A stretch of 64,000 bases of DNA from Muribaculaceae bacterium (GCA_045656705.1 JAZORR010000013.1:19401-83400); one strand, 5' to 3'. Positions 12,648-64,000 are shown, counted from the stretch's first letter. Translations and numbers: made by a program. Notes: generated from the letters alone by a model not told the origin.

Positions 12648-13193
12648 GTGGAAAAGAAATTTTTTAGATTAGTTACTAATGCTTATGATAATGTAGGTGG
12701 TTTATTGTATGCTCCCAAAGGAGTTTATAGATTAGCAGTTGACGGAGAACCTGTGAAAAATTGGGAAAATATAATCATGAAATTAAAGGATGGGTTATAT
12801 ACTGATTTTAGTTCTTGCGTAGGTGGTGCCAATCTCGTTAGTATTGAGTTTAAGGAAGTTGTTGAGAAATTTATACCAAATGATTATCCTCTTGAATTTC
12901 TTCCTGTAAAAGCAGAAAGTGAAAAATATGGTAATCGCACATATTACATAATGCATTTTAAGAAAATATTTGATGTAATTGACAAGAAACATACTGTATA
13001 TGTTGATGGAACCGATTGTGTAATAAAAGTGTGCTTAGATTATCAAAAATGTAAAGATTTACACATATTTAATACACAACCGGCAATAAACGATGTTATT
13101 GTGTCGGGAGAATTACGTCGAATGTTACGAAAATATAAACTTGATTTAGGCTTTATTTTTCATGAGTTACCATATTATGATTATGGAAAATAA
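12648..13193 (+). CDS. Hypothetical protein, tentatively Imm11/DUF1629-like polymorphic-toxin immunity protein
   Basis: 181 aa with a GTG start 4 nt after the upstream stop. The pattern ...LVSIEFKEVVEKFIPNDYPLEFLPVKA...YYIMHFKKIFDVIDKKHT...LHIFNTQ...DVIVSGELRRMLRKYKLDLGFIFHEL matches my recollection of the DUF1629 layout. No search was run. Confidence 0.45.
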   Translation: MEKKFFRLVTNAYDNVGGLLYAPKGVYRLAVDGEPVKNWENIIMKLKDGLYTDFSSCVGGANLVSIEFKEVVEKFIPNDYPLEFLPVKAESEKYGNRTYYIMHFKKIFDVIDKKHTVYVDGTDCVIKVCLDYQKCKDLHIFNTQPAINDVIVSGELRRMLRKYKLDLGFIFHELPYYDYGK

Positions 13194-13208
13194 CGATATT
13201 TTAAAATT

Positions 13209-13997
13209 ATGGCAAAACGAGTGATTATAAATAAGGGTGATATATTCTGTGTTGAAATAGAGGGAAAATACAAAAGTTATTTCCAATTTTTAGATAAAGA
13301 TGTCAATTTATTGAATAGTAACGTTATAAGAGTTTTTAAAACACGTTATCCATTAGATTATGAGCCTATTCTTGCTGAAATAGTACAAGATGATGTGCTT
13401 TTTTATACGCATACATTTATAAGGGTTGGATTAGATTATAACGCTTGGTATAAGATAGGTAGATTAAAACAGGAAGAACCTTATAATCTTACAAATGTAA
13501 AATTTGGAACTTTTTGTGAAACGAGATTAAAGCGAGATAATGGCATTTTAGAATTTATAACTGTCAGTCCTTTAGAGAATTGGACTACGTGGTATGTTAA
13601 CGGAGAATATGAATGTGATGTTGATTTAATGACTGAAGATATAGAGATATTGGAACTTGGTGGAGTTATGCCATATTCACATGTTCTGTATAGAATCGAA
13701 TATGGTTATTATCGTTCTTGGTCTAAAGAATATGACATTATCAAGCGACGTCCGATAGCGGGGGTGAATAGCTACACGAAGCGCGAAATTGACGGAAACG
13801 AGTGCTATTTTCATTTTATCGGTGAGGATATTTATTGCGAGATTATTGTAACGCCACAGGGTGTAATCAAGCTTACTCAGGAAGAGCCCGAAAAGGACGG
13901 TTGCACATTCCACGCCCGCAAGTTCTGGGAAATCAACTGGAAATACCGAGACCACATCACCGCAGAGGGCTTTGAAGAGATGTGGAATAAAAACTAA
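13209..13997 (+). CDS. Hypothetical protein, paralogue 1; N-terminal Imm26-like immunity domain (tentative) plus conserved C-terminal module
   Basis: 262 aa. N-terminus MAKRVIINKGDIFCVEIEGKYKSYFQF...VIRVF...WYKIG...ENWTTWYVNG...MPYSHVLYRIEYGYY follows the GD(I/V)F-x-V...Y..Q...W..iG...W layout I associate with Imm26-type proteins. It is a full-length paralogue of 15033..15821. Confidence 0.45.
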   Translation: MAKRVIINKGDIFCVEIEGKYKSYFQFLDKDVNLLNSNVIRVFKTRYPLDYEPILAEIVQDDVLFYTHTFIRVGLDYNAWYKIGRLKQEEPYNLTNVKFGTFCETRLKRDNGILEFITVSPLENWTTWYVNGEYECDVDLMTEDIEILELGGVMPYSHVLYRIEYGYYRSWSKEYDIIKRRPIAGVNSYTKREIDGNECYFHFIGEDIYCEIIVTPQGVIKLTQEEPEKDGCTFHARKFWEINWKYRDHITAEGFEEMWNKN

Positions 13998-14032
13998 AAA
14001 CTATCATTTATTTCTAAATTTTGTAAAATAAT

Positions 14033-14473
14033 ATGGAAGCGTATTTTGAAGATGATATGGAAGAAAAACTAATGGTGAAATTGTTAACTGACGTTTTCAA
14101 AAAATTACCGCCAGATTCGTATCTATGTGTAGATATTTTATTTGATTTCGTTTTTAAAGATGGTTTTCTTCCTAAACTGAATCAAGTAAAGGAAGAGATG
14201 ATAGGTCATCAAGGATTTTGTTGTTTTAAATTTAAGTTAACTCCTGATTGTGTTGACTATCTTATAGAATCGTTGGAAGAGGATAACTTATTAGTAAATT
14301 ATTTGTGCCATTATATGGTAATAAATGGGACTGAGGTGTTGCTAGACGCTTATGATCAAACGTTGATAACGGTTAGAGAAGATTTTAATATCTCACAAGA
14401 TTTTATCCAAGAATGTAGTAAATATGAAATCTACATATCTACAGAAGATAAAATCACTTCTACCTTTAATTAA
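14033..14473 (+). CDS. Hypothetical protein (146 aa), acidic, no recognisable motif
   Basis: ATG-initiated ORF on the same strand with AT-rich composition like its neighbours. No signal peptide. Confidence 0.4.
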   Translation: MEAYFEDDMEEKLMVKLLTDVFKKLPPDSYLCVDILFDFVFKDGFLPKLNQVKEEMIGHQGFCCFKFKLTPDCVDYLIESLEEDNLLVNYLCHYMVINGTEVLLDAYDQTLITVREDFNISQDFIQECSKYEIYISTEDKITSTFN

Positions 14474-14582
14474 TTTGTGTTTGACAATATCTGAATCAAG
14501 GCAATGTTGTATCACTATATACCTATTATACCGGGATTTTTTGAGAAGTTAAAAGGAAATTATTAATCTAAATATATTTAAT

Positions 14583-14987
14583 ATGAAAATTATAACTATA
14601 ATTTTAGCGTCATTGCTTTTGATATTCAGATATTGTACAATGGAACCGGAAGAATATTAATTTGTTACAATAAAAAATAATTCAAATATTCCTTTAGTAT
14701 GTATATTGGAGAATGAAGAACCATTAGAGGGCTTTAAATTTGTTGATAGAGAGTCAGAAACTGCACTAGGAGAATATGATGTCGGAAAAATGTTTCTAGC
14801 CCAGACAAGACAAGATGTTTTCAAAAAAAAGGATAATGTTGTTTTCTGGTTCTTCCCGATGGATGTCTTTATGAAACTAGAAGCTGGGGATAGTCTCATT
14901 AATTATCCTGAAGAGATTGTTTTAAAGATAGTTAAATGTAACAAGAGGGAGCTTGAGACATTGAATTGGACAATTACTTATCCATAA
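14583..14987 (+). pseudogene. Possible small secreted/lipoprotein gene interrupted by one in-frame TAA
   Basis: ATG 14583 encodes MKIITIILASLLLIFRYCTMEPEEY, then TAA at 14658-14660. The same frame continues open (FVTIKNNSNIPLVCILENEEPLEGFKF...) into the track ORF 14706..14987, which itself has only a TTG start. Confidence 0.3.
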
Positions 14988-15032
14988 GTGAATGGTATAA
15001 AAAAACATTGATGTACTTATTTAAATATTATT

Positions 15033-15821
15033 ATGGCAAAGAGAATAGTAACAAAGGTTGGAGATGTGTTTTGTGTAGAAATAGACAACGAGTATAAATG
15101 TTTTTTTCAATATATTGAGAAAGATTTAAGTCAACTAAATAGTTCCGTAATAAGAGTATTTAAACGACGTTACCCTATTGAATACAATCCTATAATTGAA
15201 GAAATAGTGAGTGATGATATTTTGTTCTATGCACATACTGTTCTAAGAGCTGGTATTGATTATAAAGCATGGTATAAAGTAGGTAAATCCAAAGAATTGG
15301 GATTAGATGGTTTAAGTAAAGTATTATGGGGGGTAGTACATATTCATAAATTATACATTATAGATCATGTACCCCAAATAGACAAGGCTAATCCATTAGA
15401 AAATTGGACTATTTGGTACTCTAATTATAAAACGATTGATATAGGAATTTTACCTAAAAAATATTATGAAATTATAGAAGAAGGAGCCGTAATACCTTAT
15501 TCTAGCATTGTAAAGAGGTTAAAATATGGCTATTATTTAAGTTATGACCCTATGTATGATATTATTAAGCGCCGCCCGATAGCGGGGGTGAATAGCTACA
15601 CGAAGCATGAGATTGATGGGAAAGTGTGCTATTTTCATTTTATCGGCGAGGATATATACCGCGAAATTATTGTAACACCACAGGATGTAATCAAACTCAC
15701 TCAGGAATACCCACAGAAAGAAGGTTACTCATTTCATGCTCGCAAGTTTTGGGAAATAAATTGGAATTACAAAGATCACATCACCGAAGATGATTTCCTA
15801 TCAATATGGAATAAAGCATAA
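15033..15821 (+). CDS. Hypothetical protein, paralogue 2 of 13209..13997 (Imm26-like N-terminal domain, tentative)
   Basis: 262 aa, the same length as paralogue 1. MAKRIVTKVGDVFCVEIDNEYKCFFQY... The last ~90 aa are nearly identical to paralogue 1 (DIIKRRPIAGVNSYTK.EIDG..CYFHFIGEDIY.EIIVTPQ.VIKLTQE...HARKFWEINW.Y.DHIT). Confidence 0.45.
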   Translation: MAKRIVTKVGDVFCVEIDNEYKCFFQYIEKDLSQLNSSVIRVFKRRYPIEYNPIIEEIVSDDILFYAHTVLRAGIDYKAWYKVGKSKELGLDGLSKVLWGVVHIHKLYIIDHVPQIDKANPLENWTIWYSNYKTIDIGILPKKYYEIIEEGAVIPYSSIVKRLKYGYYLSYDPMYDIIKRRPIAGVNSYTKHEIDGKVCYFHFIGEDIYREIIVTPQDVIKLTQEYPQKEGYSFHARKFWEINWNYKDHITEDDFLSIWNKA

Positions 15822-15840: not shown

Positions 15841-15848
15841 TAAATTTG
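15841..15848 (+). promoter_or_regulatory. -7 box-like TAAATTTG at the right edge of the insertion, just upstream of neuB
   Basis: TAAATTTG at 15841-15848. The neuB ATGs are at 15852 and 15858, so the spacing is very short and function is uncertain. Confidence 0.25.
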
Positions 15849-15851
15849 CAC

Positions 15852-16859
15852 ATGAATATGAATAAGACTATAATTATAGCTGAAGCGGGGGTGAATCATA
15901 ATGGCGATATGGGTATCGCTAAAGGTCTCATAGATGCTGCTGCCGATGCTGGGGTTGATTATGTGAAATTCCAGACTTTCAAGACCGAAAATTTGGTGTC
16001 GCACGATGCTCCTACTGCCGAATATCAGAAATCGGCAACTAATGAGTCGTCGCAATTTGCTATGCTCAAGCGTTTGGAGCTAAGCGAGGAACAGCATCTC
16101 ACTCTTATCGATTACTGCAATGAGAAGGGTGTAAAATTCCTTTCTACGGCATTCGACCTCGATAGTATCGATCTATTGAGCCGATTTGACCTTGATTTCT
16201 GGAAAGTGCCAAGTGGCGAAATCACCAACTACCCTTATTTGGCGAAAACAGCTCGCACAGGTAAGCCCGTGGTGATGTCGACGGGTATGTGCGACGAAAA
16301 TGACATACATAATGCCATTTATGCTTTATGCGAAAATGGTGCAAACAAAGATGACATTACCTTATTGCATTGCAACACGCAATACCCTACTCCAATGGCC
16401 GATGTGAATCTGCGAGCAATGGCGAGAATGGAGACCTCATTCGGCGTGCAAGTGGGCTATAGCGACCACACTCAGGGCATTGAAGTGCCGATAGCGGCTG
16501 TGGCTCTCGGGGCGAAGGTGATAGAGAAGCATTTCACGCTCGACCGTAATATGGAAGGCCCCGACCACAAGGCTTCGCTCGAACCTCACGAACTCAAGGC
16601 TATGGTTTCGGCTATTCGCCACATAGAGGAGGCTCTCGGGAATGGCGAAAAGCGTACATCGGCGAGCGAAACACCCAATAAGGCTGTGGCTCGCAAGAGT
16701 ATAGTGGCCAAATGCCACATTGAGGCTGGCGAACTGCTCTCCGAAGAGAATATCACAGTGAAACGCCCCGGAACGGGCATCTCACCAATGCGTTGGCGTG
16801 AGGTGTTAGGTACAAAAGCCATACACGACTTCACACCCGACCAACTGATAGAAATATAA
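15852..16859 (+). CDS. neuB: N-acylneuraminate (nonulosonate) synthase, NeuB/LegI family
   Basis: IIIAEAGVNHNGDMGIAKGLIDAAADAGVDYVKFQTF, and a C-terminal SAF-like region IVAKCHIEAGELLSEENITVKRPGTGISP. The track start 15846 is TTG. The first ATG is 15852, and 15858 is also possible. Confidence 0.85.
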   Translation: MNMNKTIIIAEAGVNHNGDMGIAKGLIDAAADAGVDYVKFQTFKTENLVSHDAPTAEYQKSATNESSQFAMLKRLELSEEQHLTLIDYCNEKGVKFLSTAFDLDSIDLLSRFDLDFWKVPSGEITNYPYLAKTARTGKPVVMSTGMCDENDIHNAIYALCENGANKDDITLLHCNTQYPTPMADVNLRAMARMETSFGVQVGYSDHTQGIEVPIAAVALGAKVIEKHFTLDRNMEGPDHKASLEPHELKAMVSAIRHIEEALGNGEKRTSASETPNKAVARKSIVAKCHIEAGELLSEENITVKRPGTGISPMRWREVLGTKAIHDFTPDQLIEI

Positions 16860-18031
16860 TGAACACGATGAAGCGAAAAATATGCATAGTGACGAGTACG
16901 CGTGCCGATTGGGGACTGCTGAGCGGTGTGGCTCAAGCTCTTAACAATCGTGCCGATGTGACTCTGCAAATCATTGCCACGAATATGCACCTCGATGAGC
17001 GATTTGGCAATACCTGGCAAGAGATTAAACGCGACGGATTGCACATAGATTATCGTGTGCCAATGTCTACCGATACCGACAGCCCTGACGGAACTGTGAA
17101 TGCTATGGGCGAATGTATGCAAGGCATGAGCAAGGCATTTGAGGCTCTACGCCCTGATTTGCTGCTAATTCTTGGCGACAGATATGAGATGCTTGCAGTG
17201 GCCGCTACAGCGCTTATTCATCGCATTCCTGTGGCTCATATGCATGGTGGAGAGGTGACGCAAGGTGCGTTCGACGAAAGCATTCGCCATTCTATCACCA
17301 AGATGAGTCACTTGCATTTCACTTCTACCGAAGAGGCTCGAAATCGTGTGATCCAACTCGGAGAGAACCCTGCCCATGTGTTCAATACTGGTGCTATTGG
17401 TGTGTACAACATATTGAATGCCAATCTTATGACTCGTGCCGAACTTGAAGACAACCTTGGCACAGAGATTCCTGAGAAATCGATTTTCGTAACCTTCCAC
17501 CCTTCTACTCTCGACGAAATGTCGCCTGCCGAACAATGCGAAAACCTACTGAAGGCTCTCGACGAGGTGAAGGATTACAAGATATTTTTCTCTTACCCTA
17601 ATAACGATCCTTCGGGACAGGCCATCATAGAGCTTATAGAGGCGTTTGTGGCACGAAACAGCGAGCGTTGCGTGGTATTCCCTTCGCTTGGCGCACGACG
17701 CTATCTTTCGGTGCTAAAATGCGTGTCTGCCGTAGTGGGTAACTCGTCGAGTGGCATTCTTGAGGTGCCATCGATGCACATCCCTACTCTGAACATAGGT
17801 ATCCGTCAGCAAGGTCGCCAACGAGCTAAGTCGGTGATAGACTGTGGAGTAAGCACCGAAGAAATAAGAGAAGGTCTCGCACATGTGTTGTCGCACGAAG
17901 TGAGAGAGATGGCTAAAACGGTGAGCAACCCTTACGAACAGCCCGATACGCTCGCCAAGATAGTGGAAACTGTGGCCACTTTCCCTCTCAACAACATAAT
18001 TCAAAAACCATTTCACGATATCACTCTATGA
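16859..18031 (+). CDS. neuC: UDP-N-acetylglucosamine 2-epimerase (hydrolysing), NeuC/LegG family
   Basis: 390 aa. KICIVTSTRADWGLL and GDRYEMLAVAATALIHRIPVAHMHGGE. The start overlaps the neuB stop (TAATG). Confidence 0.85.
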   Translation: MNTMKRKICIVTSTRADWGLLSGVAQALNNRADVTLQIIATNMHLDERFGNTWQEIKRDGLHIDYRVPMSTDTDSPDGTVNAMGECMQGMSKAFEALRPDLLLILGDRYEMLAVAATALIHRIPVAHMHGGEVTQGAFDESIRHSITKMSHLHFTSTEEARNRVIQLGENPAHVFNTGAIGVYNILNANLMTRAELEDNLGTEIPEKSIFVTFHPSTLDEMSPAEQCENLLKALDEVKDYKIFFSYPNNDPSGQAIIELIEAFVARNSERCVVFPSLGARRYLSVLKCVSAVVGNSSSGILEVPSMHIPTLNIGIRQQGRQRAKSVIDCGVSTEEIREGLAHVLSHEVREMAKTVSNPYEQPDTLAKIVETVATFPLNNIIQKPFHDITL

Positions 18032-56070: not shown

Positions 56071-56143
56071 GGTGCCATAGCTCAGTTGGTAGAGCAAAGG
56101 ACTGAAAATCCTTGTGTCCCCGGTTCGATTCCTGGTGGCACCA
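56071..56143 (+). tRNA. tRNA-Phe (anticodon GAA)
   Basis: Hand-folded cloverleaf. Acceptor GGTGCCA/TGGCACC. D arm GCTC-AGTTGGTA-GAGC. Anticodon arm AAGGA-CTGAAAA-TCCTT. Variable loop GTGTC. T arm CCCGG-TTCGATT-CCTGG (one C:T mismatch at 51:63). Discriminator A. CCA is not encoded. Confidence 0.9.
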
Positions 56144-56280
56144 CTTGAACCAAAGGTTAAAATCAACAAAACGCTGCAAATCAATGATTTGCGGCGTTTT
56201 TCTTTTGTCAAAAATCGGCACTTTTGGTGCAAAATGAAGCAGTTTAGTGTGTTATTCATGGACATTTTTTGGATCCCTCA

Positions 56281-56639: not shown

Positions 56640-57764
56640 ATGCAAAAGAGCACTTTCTCAGTAAACTTCTTCATTCGCCGCACTCGACTTGGCAAGAGTG
56701 GCGAAACACCTATTATGATGCGTATCTCCGTAGATGGCAGATACACCGAACTCAGCACACAGCGACGAGTGCCTGTTGAGCAGTGGAGTCAGAGTCGCTG
56801 TTGCGCCACGGGCAAGACCGCTGTGGCGTTGGAGATAAATCGCCACCTCGACAATTTGCGAAGCAAGGCGAGCGAGGCACATCAGAATTTCCTTGCCGAA
56901 GATGGCTATGTAGATCCATTTATTATTAAGGAGTTCCTGCTGGGCAAGCACCGCCGTCAGCGATTCTTCTTTGAGGTCTTCGAGGAGCACAACGCACGCA
57001 TTGCTTCGCTGATCGGCAAAGATTACGACCGCACGACCTATCACCGCTATATGTTGTGTCTGCGTTACTTTCGTGAGATGATGACCAAACAGACAAAGGC
57101 GGAAGATTTTCCAATCAGAAATCTCAGCCACGAGATGGTGCGAGATTTTGAGCATTTCCTCAAAACCAAAAAGCGAGTGGCACAGAACACGATGATTCGC
57201 TATATGAAGTGTTTGAAGAAGGTCGTAAACCTCTCACTTGCCAATGGTTGGATGACCGTCAATCCTTTTGCCGGCATAAAGTATGCCGAGAAGAAGGTCA
57301 TACGAGAGTATCTGACTATGCCCGAGGTAAACCGCTTACGAGAAAAAGAATTTTCGATTCAGCGACTTGAAATGGTGCGAGATATATTCTTGTTCTGCTG
57401 TTACACGGGGTTGGCGTATATCGATGTTCACAACCTCCGCCCCGAGAATATCACCGAGGATGCCCACGGGCGCAAGTGGATACGCAAGCAGCGAGAAAAG
57501 ACCGATGTGGAGTTCTATGTGCCCCTGCTCGAATATCCGTTGCAGATACTCGAAAAGTACAATAATCACCCACTGTGCAAGGAACGAGGCACACTACTGC
57601 CCGTCTATGCCAACCAGAAGATGAACTCCTATCTAAAAGAGATTGCCGACTTCTGCGGGATAAAGAAACAACTGACGATGCATTGCTTAAGACATAGTCA
57701 TTTGTCTTTGTTGCTGAAAACAAATGATTTACAGAATTTAAATTTGCTACAGGTAACGATTTAG
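56640..57764 (+). pseudogene. Bacteroidetes-type tyrosine recombinase/integrase, 3'-truncated (catalytic Tyr region missing)
   Basis: 374 aa. N-terminal arm-binding-type MQKSTFSVNFFIRRTRLGKSGETPIMMRISVDGR, SAM-like core, box II HCLRHS at 57681-57698. After this the frame runs 22 AT-rich codons (HLSLLLKTNDLQNLNLLQVTI) to a stop, without the LGH...Y segment. Confidence 0.65.
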
Positions 57765-57898
57765 AAACGAGCGAAGTTTCCTTATCTGTCTTATTCTGCA
57801 TTATTGAAAAGAACGCTTTATCTTAATGCAAAGATAGTATTAATTTTGTAAACATTAAAATAACAATCTATATTTTATCTTTACGAATAAGCCATTCT

Positions 57899-58978
57899 TT
57901 ACCATTCACAGGAAACTACAAGCTCAGGTTTTAATAGTTTAAGTTCTTCAAATATCTCTTTAGCTGTTAATCCTGCGTAAAATGGGACTACCTGTGGAAT
58001 CATATTGATTTGGTCACAAAGAGATTGAATTTGCTCTTCTACGGACTTCCCCTTATCAACTATAACAGTATTAGTAGTTGTTTTCCTTTCAAGATGCTCA
58101 GTTACCATTCCTACAAAATAACCTTTATCCGAAAATATTGGACCACCACTATTTCCTGGTCGTACAACGGAAGAGTATATTAAACATTTATCACCATTAT
58201 AGTTTGTTGAAATAGCATTAATTTCACCTTTTTGTACGATTAGAGGAGTTTCCCTAATTCTGGAAATAGGCGGATATCCAAAAGTGAGAATTGTGTCCAA
58301 GACATGTCCGCCACTAAATACTACATCATTTTCAGGATTTAAAGAGCAGTCCAAAATTTCAATAATAGCAATATCCTTTGATCCCGATTTATATATATCT
58401 TTAACAGCGTATTGCGCCTCTTTAATCAACACCTCCTTAATTTCCACTCCATCAACAACATGCAAGCATGTTAATATATGATTTGTTGATATGAGCAGAC
58501 CGCTACCAATATGGTTATCTCCTTTATCATCACAAACAACTATAATGGCGGTATAAGGAGAAATCCTTTCTCTGATATAATCAAGGCCTAAATATTCTGC
58601 ATAAGATGTAATTTTTAGCCATTCCTCCTCTGATGAAGGCATATTAAGAGATACGTACATATCACCTAATATTGGTAAGCCACCTAAAGACGAGACTTTA
58701 TTTACAACTGACTTTTCAACTAACTTTTGTAACAAGTGGTTTATATGATACAAATAAGTAAATGCACTTTTACCTAAGCTATTTTTCTTTGTATTATAAT
58801 CTATAAAATCTTGTACAGAAAGTCCTATTGTATTAGCCTTCTCATCAGATAAGTTATGGAGTTCCTTTTTAATTTGGGCAGCATTTATCAAGGAGAAATC
58901 CTCTATAATCCGTCTTATGAGTAATTCTAATTCTATAAACGTGATGGGAGCATCCGTTGCAGTTTCAAGTTCTGCCAT
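57899..58978 (-). CDS. Trypsin-like (S1/Trypsin_2-type) serine protease with ~140-aa helical N-terminal domain; third gene of the nuclease-ATPase-protease operon
   Basis: Catalytic triad context: HILTCLHVV (His), SKDIAIIEI (Asp), VRPGNSGGPIF (Ser). No signal peptide. The track start 58990 is TTG (8-nt overlap with the upstream gene). The first ATG, 58978, lies 4 nt after the upstream stop. Confidence 0.75.
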   Translation of the reverse strand: MAELETATDAPITFIELELLIRRIIEDFSLINAAQIKKELHNLSDEKANTIGLSVQDFIDYNTKKNSLGKSAFTYLYHINHLLQKLVEKSVVNKVSSLGGLPILGDMYVSLNMPSSEEEWLKITSYAEYLGLDYIRERISPYTAIIVVCDDKGDNHIGSGLLISTNHILTCLHVVDGVEIKEVLIKEAQYAVKDIYKSGSKDIAIIEILDCSLNPENDVVFSGGHVLDTILTFGYPPISRIRETPLIVQKGEINAISTNYNGDKCLIYSSVVRPGNSGGPIFSDKGYFVGMVTEHLERKTTTNTVIVDKGKSVEEQIQSLCDQINMIPQVVPFYAGLTAKEIFEELKLLKPELVVSCEW

Positions 58979-58982
58979 AACA

Positions 58983-60428
58983 TTATTCAATTAATCTATC
59001 TACAATACTTATTTTATTAACATCTGTCAAACTATATTCATATATTGATGCAATGATAATTTGGTTATTTGCAAAATCTCTTTTTAATATTTCAACCATT
59101 GCTTCTATATTTTGCTTATCAATCTCTTTCCCACTTGGAGAATCAAGAATTATCGGGAATTTAATGTTCAAATGCTTTTCAACCTCTAACAAGCAAGCAA
59201 GCCTAAAAGCAAAAACCGTTTTATGCAAAATGGCTCCTGACAATTCTTTTAGATTTGAGGTAAATAAATACTTTTCGGTATTATGACTTTCATCAATTCC
59301 TAATTCTTGAAGATATTTTTTAGTGGTATTAAATATCGAAGAGATTACAGTATTAGCACTTCGTGTTAATTCTCTAATTTTTAGATTAATGTCCGCTATT
59401 TCTTTTTCTAATTTCGCAATTCCTTTTTTGACAGCAACTTCATTTATAGGTATACTTGAAATTCTTTTATCAAAAATCTCGGAAATCGTTTCAACATTGT
59501 CAAAGAAGGACAACTGTTGCTCTTCTGTTTTACGCTCTTTCTCAAGCTCAGCAATTTCTGACTGTATTTGATTATATTGTGAAGCTATCAGTTTGCGTTT
59601 TGCTACGAGAAAATCAATAGTGTCATTAAGACCTATAATATTATCCTCTGTAACGGCAAAGATTTCTTTATTAGGAGCTTGAACTAATAGTCCTATTTCT
59701 GCTATGAAATTTCTAAAATGTTTATTTTCCTTTAGGACCTTGTCTATTCTGCATAATTCTTTCTTTAACATATTATGCTGTATCTTACATTGATTGATTT
59801 TGCTATCAATCAAAGAATTGTATGATTCTCCTGCAAGATTGTTAGATTCGGCATCAATAGTTTCTTGGTACTTAGAAACACTAAACATCTGTTTGTATTT
59901 CAATAAATCTTGTCTCTTCGCTTCCTTTTGTCTGTATAATTCAGAACAATCAATCTCTGCGATTCCCCTGATTAGTTCCTCAATATTAAAACGAATACTT
60001 CCAATGACAATCCCTCGATTAAGTAAGGTCCAACCCTTCTCCTGATCAAAATAGAATATTCCTAAAAGATTATTTATCAGTTCAGGGTAGTTGGCTTTAA
60101 AAATAATTTTATGAAGAGCTGCTTCATCGCTTGGCAAGACATAAGTCGTTACAGAATCATTCTGTTTCAATTCAATATAATCCCTCGATTCTCGGCATAA
60201 TAATAGAATCTCTCCATTATCAAGAGTTATTTTACTTTCGACCTTGCAGTTCTCAAATTTGATATGCTTAGTATTGGGAACGCTATATCCGATTGAATAT
60301 AACATAAGTCTTAGTAAAGTAGTTTTGCCCTTACTGTTTGCAAGACTATGTATAAGGTTGTTTCCATCAGAGAAAACAATCAAGCGTTTATTACCAGCCT
60401 CTTCGATATAGATTGAATTGAAAATCAT
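58983..60428 (-). CDS. Coiled-coil ABC/SMC-like ATPase (Rad50/LmuB/ABC-3C-like), middle gene of the operon
   Basis: 481 aa. Walker A-like SLANSKGKTTLL, Q-loop-like IFYFDQEKG, ~250-aa heptad-rich insert, signature-like KELSGAILHK, Walker B FPIILDSPSGKEID. ATGA overlap with the upstream gene. Confidence 0.65.
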   Translation of the reverse strand: MIFNSIYIEEAGNKRLIVFSDGNNLIHSLANSKGKTTLLRLMLYSIGYSVPNTKHIKFENCKVESKITLDNGEILLLCRESRDYIELKQNDSVTTYVLPSDEAALHKIIFKANYPELINNLLGIFYFDQEKGWTLLNRGIVIGSIRFNIEELIRGIAEIDCSELYRQKEAKRQDLLKYKQMFSVSKYQETIDAESNNLAGESYNSLIDSKINQCKIQHNMLKKELCRIDKVLKENKHFRNFIAEIGLLVQAPNKEIFAVTEDNIIGLNDTIDFLVAKRKLIASQYNQIQSEIAELEKERKTEEQQLSFFDNVETISEIFDKRISSIPINEVAVKKGIAKLEKEIADINLKIRELTRSANTVISSIFNTTKKYLQELGIDESHNTEKYLFTSNLKELSGAILHKTVFAFRLACLLEVEKHLNIKFPIILDSPSGKEIDKQNIEAMVEILKRDFANNQIIIASIYEYSLTDVNKISIVDRLIE

Positions 60429-61423
60429 AGGTTCACAGCATTCTTAATATTGTCTATTTGAATACGTTTGTTCAAAATATTGCGAACAATAATTTGTAGA
60501 AGTTTTTCTTGTAAAGTACTAGGCAAAAACACTCTCTCTCCTTCAAAAATATATGCGAATTTACAACTCTCTGTTTCTATAAATTTTCGTTTTCTTTCAC
60601 CTTGTTTTGCTTCTTTATAGAAACTATTATATGCACATAGCACCTTAGTTACAAATTCGTATTTTTCCGAGCAGGTATTTATAATTGTTTCGTAACTTCT
60701 CGATAGTTCATATATCTCAGAGTCATCAAAGTCATCTTCATCATAATTTTCATTTTGAGTTACAAGAACTATTAAAGGCCATATAATATCCTTTTTAGTT
60801 AGTTTTATGTCAGATGTCCTTTTCGTTCCACTTCTAAAAATATCTTTTATCCAAATTCCATGTAAATTGTCTTTAGCTATAGATATATTTCCTAATTTGG
60901 GAATGAAATCACCAATAGCATTCATTACACATTTATATCTTTCATTGTCGTTTTCTGTTTCAAAAGGTAAAATCTGTATTTTGAACTTACTCGTGTCAAG
61001 AGGATCTTCAATCTCAGAAATAATCTTATTAATTTTATCTTTTAAAGGTTCTGGCAATGAACTGTAATCTCTTTGAGCAACACCATAGAATATCGGATTC
61101 AATTGTTTCTCTTTGAATGGGTTTGGAGTATTTGTTATATATATAAGTTCTTTAACTTTTCCAGATTTATGCTCTGCTTCTGACAATGATGTTATAGACT
61201 TCTTAAGATTCGATAGTACATTAGAAAAATCTGTACTGCTATTTACAACAGCTTTTGCTTGTGCCAATAAACAACTTCCATCATTTAGATTGATTTCTAT
61301 ATCTTCAGCTCCTTCTAAACGAATACTGGTCATATCTTTAATATTCTCAAGCATCAACACTATTGCTGCGTTTGCTTGAAAATCAAATCCAAATAACACT
61401 GATGTTGCCGTTCTATTCGCCAT
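60425..61423 (-). CDS. DUF4297/Cap4-like PD-(D/E)xK nuclease-domain protein with uncharacterised C-terminal domain; first gene of the operon
   Basis: 332 aa. The N-terminus SVLFGFDFQANAAIVLML...RLEGAEDIEINLNDGSCLLAQAKAV matches the G-F-x-(F/Y)-Q ... E-x-x-E-D ... Q-x-K layout I recall for DUF4297. The rest (~240 aa) is helical-looking and unassigned. Confidence 0.55.
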   Translation of the reverse strand: MANRTATSVLFGFDFQANAAIVLMLENIKDMTSIRLEGAEDIEINLNDGSCLLAQAKAVVNSSTDFSNVLSNLKKSITSLSEAEHKSGKVKELIYITNTPNPFKEKQLNPIFYGVAQRDYSSLPEPLKDKINKIISEIEDPLDTSKFKIQILPFETENDNERYKCVMNAIGDFIPKLGNISIAKDNLHGIWIKDIFRSGTKRTSDIKLTKKDIIWPLIVLVTQNENYDEDDFDDSEIYELSRSYETIINTCSEKYEFVTKVLCAYNSFYKEAKQGERKRKFIETESCKFAYIFEGERVFLPSTLQEKLLQIIVRNILNKRIQIDNIKNAVNL

Positions 61424-61452
61424 TATAATACCCTATTTTACGAATTCTTTTG

Positions 61453-61460
61453 CAAAATTA
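61453..61460 (-). promoter_or_regulatory. -7 box (TAATTTTG on the minus strand) for the three-gene operon
   Basis: Plus-strand caaaatta, 30 nt upstream of ATG 61423. Confidence 0.5.
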
Positions 61461-61502
61461 GTGATTATTTGTCAACTACTTCGCTACCAAGTAATAAAAT
61501 TG

Positions 61503-61510
61503 TAATTTTG
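61503..61510 (+). promoter_or_regulatory. -7 box TAATTTTG for the divergent ATPase gene
   Basis: Lies 27 nt upstream of ATG 61537. Confidence 0.5.
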
Positions 61511-61536
61511 TATCGTTTAATCAATGTTTGAAGGTT

Positions 61537-62892
61537 ATGAAGATAAGAAAGGTTAAATGGGCAAATCACCCGATATTAGGCAACTTAGAATTAAATTTTG
61601 TAAATCCAGTTACTAATAAGCCATATTCTACTATTGTTTTAGCTGGCGAGAATGGTACGGGAAAGACTACTATATTGGAAACACTGAATACTTTCTTGAG
61701 TATTGGAAGTTTTGAGCCTTTTGATGGAATTGAGTATGAAGTTGAAGATAAACGATACATTTTGACTCCATCAAACATACCTGGTTCGCTTAAAACATTT
61801 TTCACAAGATATGATGTGGAAAATGATACTTCAGAAAACATTCATAGTGACCGGAATAATAATTCAAGTTCTATTCAATCAGATAATAAAGACCCTAGAT
61901 CTTATGGAAGTGTGTTTTCAAGACCAAGGGCAGATTATAAAACCAACAAAATAGAATCTGTAAAAACAAATGAACTTGATAATAACAAGTATGACTCGGA
62001 TAATGATGATAATTTCACATCATTAAAGCAACTAATTGTAGATGTTCAGAACCAAGATAATGAGCAATATCGCGATATAAATGATAATAGGAGTCAGCAA
62101 GGCCTATCACCAATGTCAACTGCCGATTTTGAACCAATATCAAAAATCTATAGATTTAAAAGTGCTTTTAATGGATTTTTTGAAACCATTAAATACAAGA
62201 AGGTCGGTAATGCTTCAGGGGAAAAGGTCGTGATTTTTGAAAAGCATGGCATAGAAATTCCTATAGATGTTTTAAGTACCGGGGAAAAACAAGTCGTTTT
62301 TAGAGGGGCATATTTGCTTAGAAACATCAATGTTCTTCAAAACTCGACAATAATGATTGATGAGCCTGAATTAAGCATGCATCCACTATGGCAGAAAAAG
62401 ATATTACAATATTACAAGAATTTATTCACTGATGCCAATTCTAATCAAACAGCACAACTGTTTTTTGCAAGCCATTCAGAAGCGGTCATAAGCGAAGCTC
62501 TAAAAGATTTAGATAAAACAAAGGTAATAGTATTGAAAAGAGATGGCAATGGACAAGTTTCAGCTAATTGTATAGGTATTCCTGCCGTACTTCCATATAC
62601 TATGGCTGCCGAGGTAAATTATCAAGCTTTTGAATTAGTATCAACAGATTACCATAATGCTTTATATGGTTATATTGAAGCTGAGGGTTGGAAGAATAAT
62701 TTTGATGCTCAATATCCCACAGTGAGCTATAATAGAGAAAGAAATGGCACTGTAATAACACAACGGATTACACTAACTGAAAAAATACGCCATATAATTC
62801 ATCACCCGGAGAATCGTAATAATAGTTACACAGAGGGAGATTTAAAAGAATCTATAGAACGAATGAGAAGTTTCATCATGGCACAACCATAA
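61537..62892 (+). CDS. Stand-alone ABC-type (AAA_15/AAA_21-like) ATPase with Asn/Asp-rich insert and ~110-aa C-terminal extension
   Basis: Walker A LAGENGTGKTTILE, signature LSTGEKQV, Walker B TIMIDEPELSMHP, H-loop FFASHSE. The track start 61528 is TTG. ATG 61537 gives MKIRKVKWANHPILGNLELNF. Confidence 0.7.
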   Translation: MKIRKVKWANHPILGNLELNFVNPVTNKPYSTIVLAGENGTGKTTILETLNTFLSIGSFEPFDGIEYEVEDKRYILTPSNIPGSLKTFFTRYDVENDTSENIHSDRNNNSSSIQSDNKDPRSYGSVFSRPRADYKTNKIESVKTNELDNNKYDSDNDDNFTSLKQLIVDVQNQDNEQYRDINDNRSQQGLSPMSTADFEPISKIYRFKSAFNGFFETIKYKKVGNASGEKVVIFEKHGIEIPIDVLSTGEKQVVFRGAYLLRNINVLQNSTIMIDEPELSMHPLWQKKILQYYKNLFTDANSNQTAQLFFASHSEAVISEALKDLDKTKVIVLKRDGNGQVSANCIGIPAVLPYTMAAEVNYQAFELVSTDYHNALYGYIEAEGWKNNFDAQYPTVSYNRERNGTVITQRITLTEKIRHIIHHPENRNNSYTEGDLKESIERMRSFIMAQP

Positions 62893-62934
62893 TAATTTCG
62901 GCGTTCACCTTCAACAAGTGAACGCCGAAATTAT
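62892..62934. terminator. Bidirectional terminator between the ATPase gene and the Res gene
   Basis: ataatttcggcgttcac / gtgaacgccgaaattat form a perfect 17-bp stem with a 9-nt loop. Confidence 0.75.
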
Positions 62935-62935
62935 A

Positions 62936-64000
62936 TCAGCTTATCGCATTCATACCATCTATCAAGTCTTGATAGGTAGCCACTTTGTGGTACTTTACAT
63001 TGGCGGTGGAGATGGAATTGAACAATTTTTCTGCACAGTCAATTTTGGCTCGTTCGATGGCAGACAAATCCATTGACGACATTGAGCCTTTAGTTTCGGC
63101 TACGAAGAATATGTGCTTTACATCGTTTTTCTTCATGGCGATAGCCCAATCGGGAGCATAGTTGCCTACGGGGGTAGGAATCTGGAAAGTGCGTGGGAGT
63201 TTGGCATAAACCACTACTTCGTTGGCTTCGTCAAGGTCGTGTGCAAATTGGCGTTCGCCCTTGCTGTCGCTGAATACATAATCGGTGATATGTTTTTGGG
63301 CTTCATAGGCTCGATCAAAATCCATTTTACTTTTGACTGTGAAAATGTCGCTATCGTATTTACCCTCGGTAATGTTGTAGTGGATAGCCTCTACAATCAT
63401 CGTTGATTTCTGTTCTTTGATAATGCTTATCACCTTACGGATAAACTCTTCCGGATTGTTCTTAAACAAGTAGAGTTTACTTTGCTTTATACCTTGCAGT
63501 ATCTTCACTACGGTGCGGCGAGTGAGGTTTGCACCTTTGGCAATATCGCCAACAAGGTCGTATTTGACAGTCGAAGTACATACATCAGTAAGCTCACGAG
63601 ATTGTGAACGGGTATCGCCAAATTCAGTTACTTGGCTTTCATCCTGTGTTCCCTCTACCATCACATAGCGAAGCTGTTTAACCTCCAAATCTTTGTTGAT
63701 GTATAGAATTGCCTTGTCAATAAGTTCATTGCTATCGTAACTTACCTGATAGACATATTGATGGTTAATTTCATTCCATAAGGCTTGGAACTCTGCTTTA
63801 TTGAAATTTTCATTCAGCTTATTATCGGGTGTAGTAGTCTTTTCCTCAACCACCATATCGTCCAATGCCTTCGGATCAAAGATAGAGTTAATCAATCGAG
63901 TAACACCCTCTGCTATCGGCTGTAGTTTTTGTGGTAATGGAGCAACTGTACCATTGGTCACCGCTTCACGATATTCTGGAGTGATATTCTTTTGATCGTC
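62936..64000 (-). CDS. Type III restriction enzyme Res subunit, C-terminal part (gene continues beyond the right edge)
   Basis: The frame stays open upstream of the track's GTG (63961) to base 64000. The C-terminal nuclease region KLPRTFQIPTPVGNYAPDWAIAMKKNDVKHIFFVAETKG (PD...E-x-K) followed by ...ERAKIDCAEKLF is typical of type III Res tails as I recall them. Confidence 0.65.
   Translation of the reverse strand, partial: DDQKNITPEYREAVTNGTVAPLPQKLQPIAEGVTRLINSIFDPKALDDMVVEEKTTTPDNKLNENFNKAEFQALWNEINHQYVYQVSYDSNELIDKAILYINKDLEVKQLRYVMVEGTQDESQVTEFGDTRSQSRELTDVCTSTVKYDLVGDIAKGANLTRRTVVKILQGIKQSKLYLFKNNPEEFIRKVISIIKEQKSTMIVEAIHYNITEGKYDSDIFTVKSKMDFDRAYEAQKHITDYVFSDSKGERQFAHDLDEANEVVVYAKLPRTFQIPTPVGNYAPDWAIAMKKNDVKHIFFVAETKGSMSSMDLSAIERAKIDCAEKLFNSISTANVKYHKVATYQDLIDGMNAIS

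Follow-up and report, generated by a model that had tools for sequence, protein, structure and literature searches.

A catalogued compact Lamassu-type gene pair and a probably separable protease gene in a Bacteroidales defence island

Within a 64,000-nucleotide stretch of a Muribaculaceae bacterium genome (GCA_045656705.1, JAZORR010000013.1:19401-83400; hereafter the window), three co-oriented genes on the minus strand between positions 57899 and 61423, which we call A, B and C, are predicted to encode a nuclease, an SMC/Rad50-like ATPase and a serine protease. A preliminary description, made from the sequence alone, had proposed that the three form an undescribed dual-effector anti-phage architecture. 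We found instead that the three genes do not make up a new system: PADLOC already catalogues A and B, over their full length, as the two-gene candidate PDC-M46, and C accompanies them solely within a single narrow family of Bacteroidales defence islands. The locus is probably best read as two separable modules, a Lamassu-type defence pair (A-B) and an autonomous protease cassette (C), that share one promoter.

Gene A (60425-61423, minus strand) is an open reading frame (ORF) of 332 amino acids (aa), and gene B (58983-60428, minus strand) is one of 481 aa whose ATG overlaps the TGA of A by 4 nt, as ATGA. The ORF listing starts gene C at a TTG at 58990; we took the in-frame ATG at 58978 as the more plausible start, which gives a 359-aa protein (57899-58978, minus strand) and places its start codon 4 nt past the TAA stop of B (58985-58983). 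The GC content over 58-63 kb is 30-34%, compared with 41-47% in the flanks, so that the gene coordinates, the tight spacing and the AT-richness that had been described all held. Bacteroidetes promoters carry a -7 element with the consensus TAnnTTTG, and a pattern search placed such a box, TAATTTTG, at 61453-61460 on the minus strand, about 30 nt upstream of the A start, in agreement with the promoter proposed before. The TAATTTTG motif is not enriched across the window (70 found versus 61 expected), and the block AATCACTAAnnTTG that surrounds the box of A is conserved in five diverged islands; we infer that the box acts as a promoter. Pattern and terminator searches found neither a TAATTTTG-type box nor a terminator-like site between A, B and C, the pattern search found no -7 box on the coding strand ahead of C, and we read the three genes as one putative transcription unit that would be driven from the single promoter. 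A sigma-70 promoter scan was uninformative in this AT-rich region (25 found versus 20.6 expected), and a scan of the same region for intrinsic terminators found none.

Protein A matched the PADLOC model PDC-M46A with an E-value of 1.5e-126, residues 1-332 aligning to profile positions 1-335 of 335, and matched the PADLOC LmuA model more weakly (E 4e-12, residues 5-270 covered). The Pfam family Cap4_nuclease reached only 20 bits (E 8.6e-4), under its cut-off of 26.2 bits, and the assignment of A as a nuclease therefore rests on the PADLOC models and on the predicted fold; to this extent the earlier call of a Cap4-like nuclease stands, while the Pfam match on its own does not carry it. NCBIfam names neither A nor B. 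The AlphaFold model of A (pLDDT 82.7) contains an N-terminal Cap4/DUF4297-type PD-(D/E)xK nuclease domain (~1-160) and a helical C-terminal domain (~165-332). When this model was compared with the PDB using Foldseek, the best matches were the Lamassu LmuA chains 9hr5_A, 9nxx_D and 9hqx_A, followed by HerA-associated DUF4297, Hachiman HamA and CBASS Cap4. Chains 9hr5_A and 9nxx_D aligned to both domains of A, with TM-scores of 0.42-0.45 and a high root-mean-square deviation; a sequence-profile search of A against the PDB gave no match, the link to these LmuA structures coming from the fold search only. Residues D41, Q55 and K57 of A are invariant in the family alignment, and 57 is also the number of the essential catalytic lysine in V. 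cholerae LmuA (PMC12663957). We conclude that A is a predicted Cap4/LmuA-type nuclease with a C-terminal domain that is expected to dock on B.

Protein B matched PDC-M46B with an E-value of 3.7e-191 (residues 1-481 on profile positions 1-477 of 483) and several PADLOC LmuB models more weakly, at E-values down to 1.4e-24. A profile built from 17 homologues of B matched the PDB chain 9ux7_A, annotated as Lamassu protein LmuB (E 6.7e-6), and Pfam returned nothing meaningful in B, DUF3732 being among the families that were not detected. The ATPase motifs named in the preliminary description are all present and are invariant in the family alignment: Walker A (G34-K35-T36-T37), Q129 in FDQEKGW, the LSGA signature at 396-399, and a Walker B motif, PIILD429-S, of the form hhhhD-S. 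We found no CxxC zinc hook in B, and its single invariant cysteine, C161, lies outside any such motif. Short LmuB proteins are described as having a Walker B of the form hhhhD[Q/S/T/E] and zero to two zinc hooks (PMC12663957); because zero hooks are admissible, the missing hook does not rule out membership of B in the short Lamassu group. At 481 aa, B is smaller than the 562-aa 9ux7 chain and the average short LmuB (~600 aa). Judging by these motifs and matches, B is a very short LmuB-type SMC/Rad50-like ABC ATPase with a predicted coiled coil. The residues kept invariant in A and B are consistent with a functional system.

A scan with the B profile over one genome per species recovered 80 loci. 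Their hosts are Bacteroidales, many Clostridia, Selenomonadales, Fibrobacter, Akkermansia and Victivallales, together with metagenome-assembled genomes labelled Spirochaetales and Alphaproteobacteria. In nearly all of the 80 loci A lies immediately upstream of B, mostly with overlapping stop and start codons, and no third gene is kept across the loci; in the window, no ORF lies between the two genes. The genes sampled downstream of B share no common family, 142 of them being without a relative at any other locus, and nine of ten sampled neighbours were recognised by PADLOC models for other defence systems or candidates (PDC-S05, PDC-M34B, PDC-S66, HEC-05, bSEFIR, TIR-NLR, PDC-S32, PDC-S19 and a type I restriction enzyme). 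A search of the locus ORFs with a hidden Markov model of the C family detected C in only two of the 80 loci (L006 and L007), both from the same island family and both at least 93% identical to the C of the window, and the remaining 78 species loci have A-B without C. This distribution largely amounts to the lack of conserved co-occurrence that the preliminary description had said would refute its reading. The A-B pair is probably self-sufficient and would not need C.

The identity of the pair follows from its full-length matches to both PDC-M46 profiles and from the same arrangement of two adjacent, overlapping genes; PDC-M46 has no third-gene model, so C is an addition at this locus. PDC-M46 is itself a computational entry, a "phage defence candidate" of PADLOC-DB v2. 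Our literature search found it mentioned in one paper, which reports a Bacillus cereus-group case where PADLOC PDC-M46 and DefenseFinder Lamassu were called on the same proteins (PMC11811056), and found no experimental test of it. Among characterised systems, A-B most resembles the short "clade S" Lamassu of type I, such as Bacillus cellulasensis LmuAB, with which it shares a Cap4-nuclease LmuA bearing a C-terminal domain and followed by an SMC-like LmuB, a two-gene lmuA-lmuB operon without an LmuC gene, and the hhhhD-S Walker B of short LmuB. It differs in that BcLmuB has a CQYC zinc hook and B has none, and in that the sequence similarity is weak, with DUF3732 undetected and Cap4_nuclease below threshold. 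Type II Lamassu and ABC-three-component (ABC-3C) systems (DdmABC; LmuA-LmuC-LmuB) resemble the locus in the types of effector and ATPase that they combine and in how the effector is presumed to be set free when DNA is sensed; unlike them, this locus has no LmuC or middle-component gene, as the preliminary description had noted. The most fitting description of the pair is a type I-like Lamassu that is very compact and lacks LmuC.

The third protein is of a different kind. C scored 59 bits against the Pfam family Trypsin_2 (E 8.7e-16; cut-off 27.6 bits), and NCBIfam MarP also matched. In the AlphaFold model of C (pLDDT 87.4), residues ~150-310 adopt a chymotrypsin (HtrA/MarP-like trypsin) fold, which is followed by a short C-terminal helix-strand tail and preceded by a family-specific helical domain (~1-145) with two short strands that come after helices at 55-64 and 72-88. 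Foldseek searches with this model retrieved MarP (Rv3671c), DegP, DegQ, DegS and the staphylococcal Spl/V8 proteases; the top matches include 3k6y, 3cs0 and 8f0a at E-values of ~1e-11, and DegP and MarP were matched with probability 1.0. The catalytic triad, H173, D202 and S277 (the last in GNSGGP), is invariant in the family alignment. There is no obvious signal peptide or membrane anchor at the N-terminus, as read from the sequence, and no Pfam match to a PDZ domain. C thus appears, as described before, to be a cytoplasmic protein with a helical N-terminal domain and an intact trypsin-like protease. It shares the fold of its protease domain with HtrA/DegP/DegS and MarP and differs from them in having neither an anchor nor a PDZ match and in carrying a unique ~145-aa cytoplasmic N-terminal domain.

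Searches with this N-terminal domain were uniformly negative. Residues 1-145 gave only noise against Pfam (per-member scans, E up to 10), a PDB-sequence profile, PHROGs and PADLOC; whole-model Foldseek searches of C against the PDB and BFVD returned only proteases or noise; no LmuC, ABC-3C middle-component or LmuA C-terminal-domain model in PADLOC, Pfam or NCBIfam matched C; and a profile of the N-terminal domain matched no LmuC chain among PDB sequences. PADLOC matches to C were confined to its protease domain and came from unrelated systems (RT-Protease_XI, PDC-M35A and HamA1). With protease-domain matches only and no LmuA match, C was rejected as an LmuA-type protease effector. Trypsin-fold serine proteases are tied to defence systems in the trypsin-MBL modules and the Lamassu-Protease subtypes, where the trypsin is generally an N-terminal fusion on a system component and a gene for an MBL-type hydrolase adjoins it (bioRxiv 10.1101/2025.09.03.673762). 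Here, in contrast, C is a protein in its own right with the protease as its C-terminal domain, and an ORF and Pfam scan found no MBL-fold gene between the integrase next to C and the window end; given the other domain order and the missing MBL gene, we rejected an assignment of C to these modules.

Evidence that C is a separate module comes from the edge of the homology between related islands. The closest islands without C (L009-L011, from Bacteroides faecichinchillae and relatives) have an A that is 91% identical and a B that is 87% identical to those of the window, and they conserve the neighbouring gene D described below. In L009 and L010, DNA homology to the window reaches 58982, one base past the B stop, where the alignment diverges immediately, and it resumes at 57816-57749 near the integrase end; the L011 contig ends inside B. 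The intervening segment of L009/L010 (7560-8606, corresponding to window 57817-58981) holds instead a gene for the unrelated defence candidate PDC-S19, with DUF3644 and EC042_2821 (a REase-like domain). Because homology breaks at the B stop and PDC-S19 occupies the slot, we conclude that C is a cassette in a variable cargo slot. Of the two loci from the genome scan that do carry C, L007 comes from Phocaeicola faecicola (C 93% identical) and L006 represents the same element as the window. The latter is a 7.2-kb contig (JAZNYZ010000052.1) that is 98.6% identical to window 57690-63155 and is binned as Acutalibacteraceae (Firmicutes); as the island is otherwise found in Bacteroidales, this placement reflects either mis-binning or a very recent transfer.

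The family to which C belongs is also found mostly without A or B. A word-filtered homologue search listed at least 1956 clusters for B, 505 for A and 43 for C. When the 146-residue N-terminal profile was run on 1.84 billion representatives, it collected ~200 clusters (50% identity); nearly all full-length members are 320-365 aa long with the domain at the N-terminus, and essentially no fusion other than the ~340-aa protease architecture was seen. From this uniform length and domain position it follows that the architecture of the C family is fixed and self-contained. We inspected eight contexts of C homologues that retain both domains. The homologue P0014 (70% identical to C) follows a nucleotidyltransferase-HEPN pair, P0018 (61%) lies among unrelated genes, and P0022 (58%; L005 2-3096) comes directly after the primase, TraQ and lysozyme genes of a Bacteroidales conjugative transposon, which suggests that members of the protease family are often carried at the ends of transfer operons. 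P0026 (40%) is beside IS66 and an amidase, its neighbours showing no relation to A or B; P0027 (34%, Clostridia) is part of a conjugative-pilus locus with TnpV, and P0032 (31%) is solitary; of two more distant homologues, one (P0284) is near HipA and DUF3846 and the other is near DUF4304 and DUF4291. None of the eight contexts contains an LmuB-like neighbour or a recurrent partner gene, and C homologues elsewhere have 66-400 nt of intergenic sequence upstream. A possible disrupted A/B pair beside the 40%-identical homologue (L001, L002) was rejected after BLASTP searches with its neighbours (328 aa and 462 aa) matched neither A nor B.

These results bear on the idea, raised in the preliminary description, that the N-terminal domain of the protease is a fused middle component, which would make the trio a canonical ABC-3C or type II Lamassu system with LmuC joined to the protease. 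Three genes do surround an LmuB-like ATPase, LmuC has been reported to be helix-turn-helix (HTH)-like (PMC12663957), and C has a small helical N-terminal domain. The gene order, however, is A-B-C where type II Lamassu is written LmuACB, the A-B clade keeps no third gene over 80 species, no middle-component or LmuC model matched C in the Pfam, NCBIfam, PADLOC and PDB-sequence searches, and the C family exists independently of LmuB. We rejected this assignment and regard it as highly improbable.

Several observations weigh against the two-module interpretation, and some of them would fit a functional link between C and the pair. In all the trio loci examined (L007 and the metagenome islands L088-L092), C starts 4 nt after the B stop; L089-L092 repeat the gene order D-A-B-C-integrase, and C lacks a promoter box. 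The trio is still present in L088, where identity has fallen to 77% for C and 86% for B, and synonymous divergence (dS) between the window and L088 is 0.94 for A, 1.39 for B and 1.54 for C, with values similar across the genes in each comparison. The ratio of nonsynonymous to synonymous divergence is 0.05-0.15 for all three genes in the island lineage, indicating purifying selection. The trio is therefore stably co-inherited under selection, and the co-divergence and low ratios mark C as an old, selected resident of the island and not a recent accident; such a pattern is compatible both with genes that stably share one mobile island and with a functional tie specific to this lineage. On the side of the pair itself, the Lamassu mechanism is carried over from relatives that are weakly similar in sequence, and B is ~80-120 aa shorter than characterised short LmuB proteins.

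Taken at face value, the conserved spacing, the putative shared promoter and the co-divergence would suit a reading in which C is a lineage-specific third component of a Lamassu-like system, either as a second, protein-directed effector or as a regulator activated by B or processing A, giving a dual-output variant. Protease effectors are known from Lamassu families, LmuC models look like HTH-type transcription factors (PMC12663957), and the predicted secondary structure of the C N-terminal domain could be that of a winged helix. Against this, nearly all A-B loci in the species scan lack C, the nearest sister islands carry PDC-S19 in its place, full-length C-family proteins occur in at least eight unrelated contexts without an LmuB-like neighbour, the profile and model searches described above link C to no Lamassu component, and the known Lamassu proteases are N-terminal LmuA fusions accompanied by an MBL-type hydrolase gene, neither of which is present here. 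We consider a third component of this kind possible but unlikely. A specific form of it, in which this island lineage has recruited the protease as a genuine third subunit and its possibly winged-helix N-terminal domain replaces LmuC on the LmuB coiled coil, is in our judgement quite unlikely; if it were true, sensing of DNA ends would free both a DNA nuclease and a protease, a dual-effector Lamassu arising by capture of a free-living protease cassette.

The contexts of the homologues also raise the question of whether C is a defence gene at all, or cargo that serves mobile elements through conjugative maintenance, processing of an element-encoded protein or countering of host defence. The positions of P0022 in a conjugative transposon, of P0027 in a conjugative-pilus locus and of P0284 near DUF3846 and HipA would agree with such a role, as would the fact that C adjoins the island integrase. 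However, C appears to be transcribed here with a defence pair, its slot in the sister islands holds a defence candidate, and one homologue follows a nucleotidyltransferase-HEPN pair; moreover, conjugative elements commonly carry defence genes, so that the context does not discriminate. We regard a purely mobile-element role for C as improbable. Judged from its distribution only, C is most likely a stand-alone conflict protein.

The family assignments, the conserved motifs, the genome distribution and the cassette boundary are direct results of this analysis; the way in which the pair may work is drawn from Lamassu. In Lamassu, a dimer of LmuB holds a single inactive LmuA through the LmuA C-terminal domain (bioRxiv 10.1101/2025.06.23.660979); the complex attaches to DNA ends and, in vivo, detects phage origins of replication, and release of LmuA, which is thought to be ATP-dependent, yields a tetramer that cleaves DNA through its Cap4 domains (PMC12663957). 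Protection by the Lamassu family takes the form of abortive infection (bioRxiv 10.1101/2022.05.11.491447). The motifs needed for this mechanism are conserved in A and B; the Walker A and nuclease lysines, on which the anti-phage activity of a short Lamassu is expected to depend, would correspond to K35 of B and K57 of A. We propose, by extension, that a B dimer would hold one inactive A monomer through the C-terminal domain of A, and that an encounter of B with invader DNA ends or replication intermediates would trigger an ATP-dependent rearrangement that frees A. Freed A would then oligomerise, and its Cap4-type nuclease (D41, Q55, K57) would cut DNA indiscriminately and abort the infection. 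In the two-module interpretation, C would be a single-gene cassette that moves through mobile elements and defence hot spots; it would fill the variable cargo slot between the B stop and the island integrase, and so be co-transcribed with A-B. Its N-terminal domain may sense a signal or restrain the enzyme, acting as a gate, with the intact protease as the executing part.

The surroundings of the trio agree with the earlier description of a tRNA-linked island with other defence-type genes. A tRNA search located tRNA-Phe at 56071-56144, and next to it lies the island tyrosine integrase (56640-57764, plus strand; Pfam Arm-DNA-bind_5, Phage_int_SAM_5 and Phage_integrase), which forms the island end adjoining C. 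On the other side, gene D (61528-62892, plus strand) is transcribed divergently from A, has a second TAATTTTG box at 61503-61510 on the plus strand (pattern search), and encodes a PtuA/AAA_21-type ATPase (Pfam AAA_21, E 2e-17; PADLOC PtuA, E 3.6e-32). D resembles an orphan PtuA-type ATPase, with a ~100-aa C-terminal tail that matches no family and without a PtuB/HNH partner. In the genome scan D stands beside A-B only in the island-lineage loci L006, L007 and L009-L011, and the islands L088-L092 have an AAA_21/AAA_15 gene in the D position; as D accompanies A-B only in this lineage, it was rejected as a part of the A-B system. Beyond D, the C-terminal part of a type III restriction endonuclease (Res) occupies 62936-64000 on the minus strand (Pfam RE_endonuc, E 8e-33; PADLOC REase_III, E 4.6e-70), with its reading frame open to the window end. 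In L091 and L092 (1-6040), a SNF2-family helicase gene, DUF4391 and a full type III Mod-Res module lie upstream of D, and from this gene content we conclude that the element, which adjoins a tyrosine integrase, is a defence island carrying several systems. On the far side of the integrase the L089-L092 contigs have different genes, for example cytochrome bd genes, an adhesin gene or an MBL-fold gene.

Elsewhere in the window, a second AT-rich segment (12648-15821, 29-34% GC) lies inside a capsule or sialic-acid-type sugar locus, directly preceding NeuB-like (15846-16859) and NeuC-like (16859-18031) genes. It holds two paralogous 262-aa ORFs (13209-13997 and 15033-15821) and small ORFs; none of these ORFs has a family assignment.

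The locus itself adds little beyond another copy of a catalogued Lamassu-related pair in a gut Bacteroidales defence island. Its relatives make it possible to read PDC-M46 as an unusually short, LmuC-less Lamassu, with a 481-aa LmuB that lacks a zinc hook, that is widespread in gut anaerobes, and this compactness may make the pair a handy minimal system for studying how LmuA is held and released by LmuB. The C family, which recurs in mobile-element cargo regions and has no whole-protein model in PADLOC v2, only protease-domain matches, is a reasonable, if weakly supported, candidate for a new single-gene conflict protein. Finally, the exchange of cassettes exactly at the B stop codon shows that tight, operon-like spacing can arise without functional dependence, which is a caution for guilt-by-association calls.

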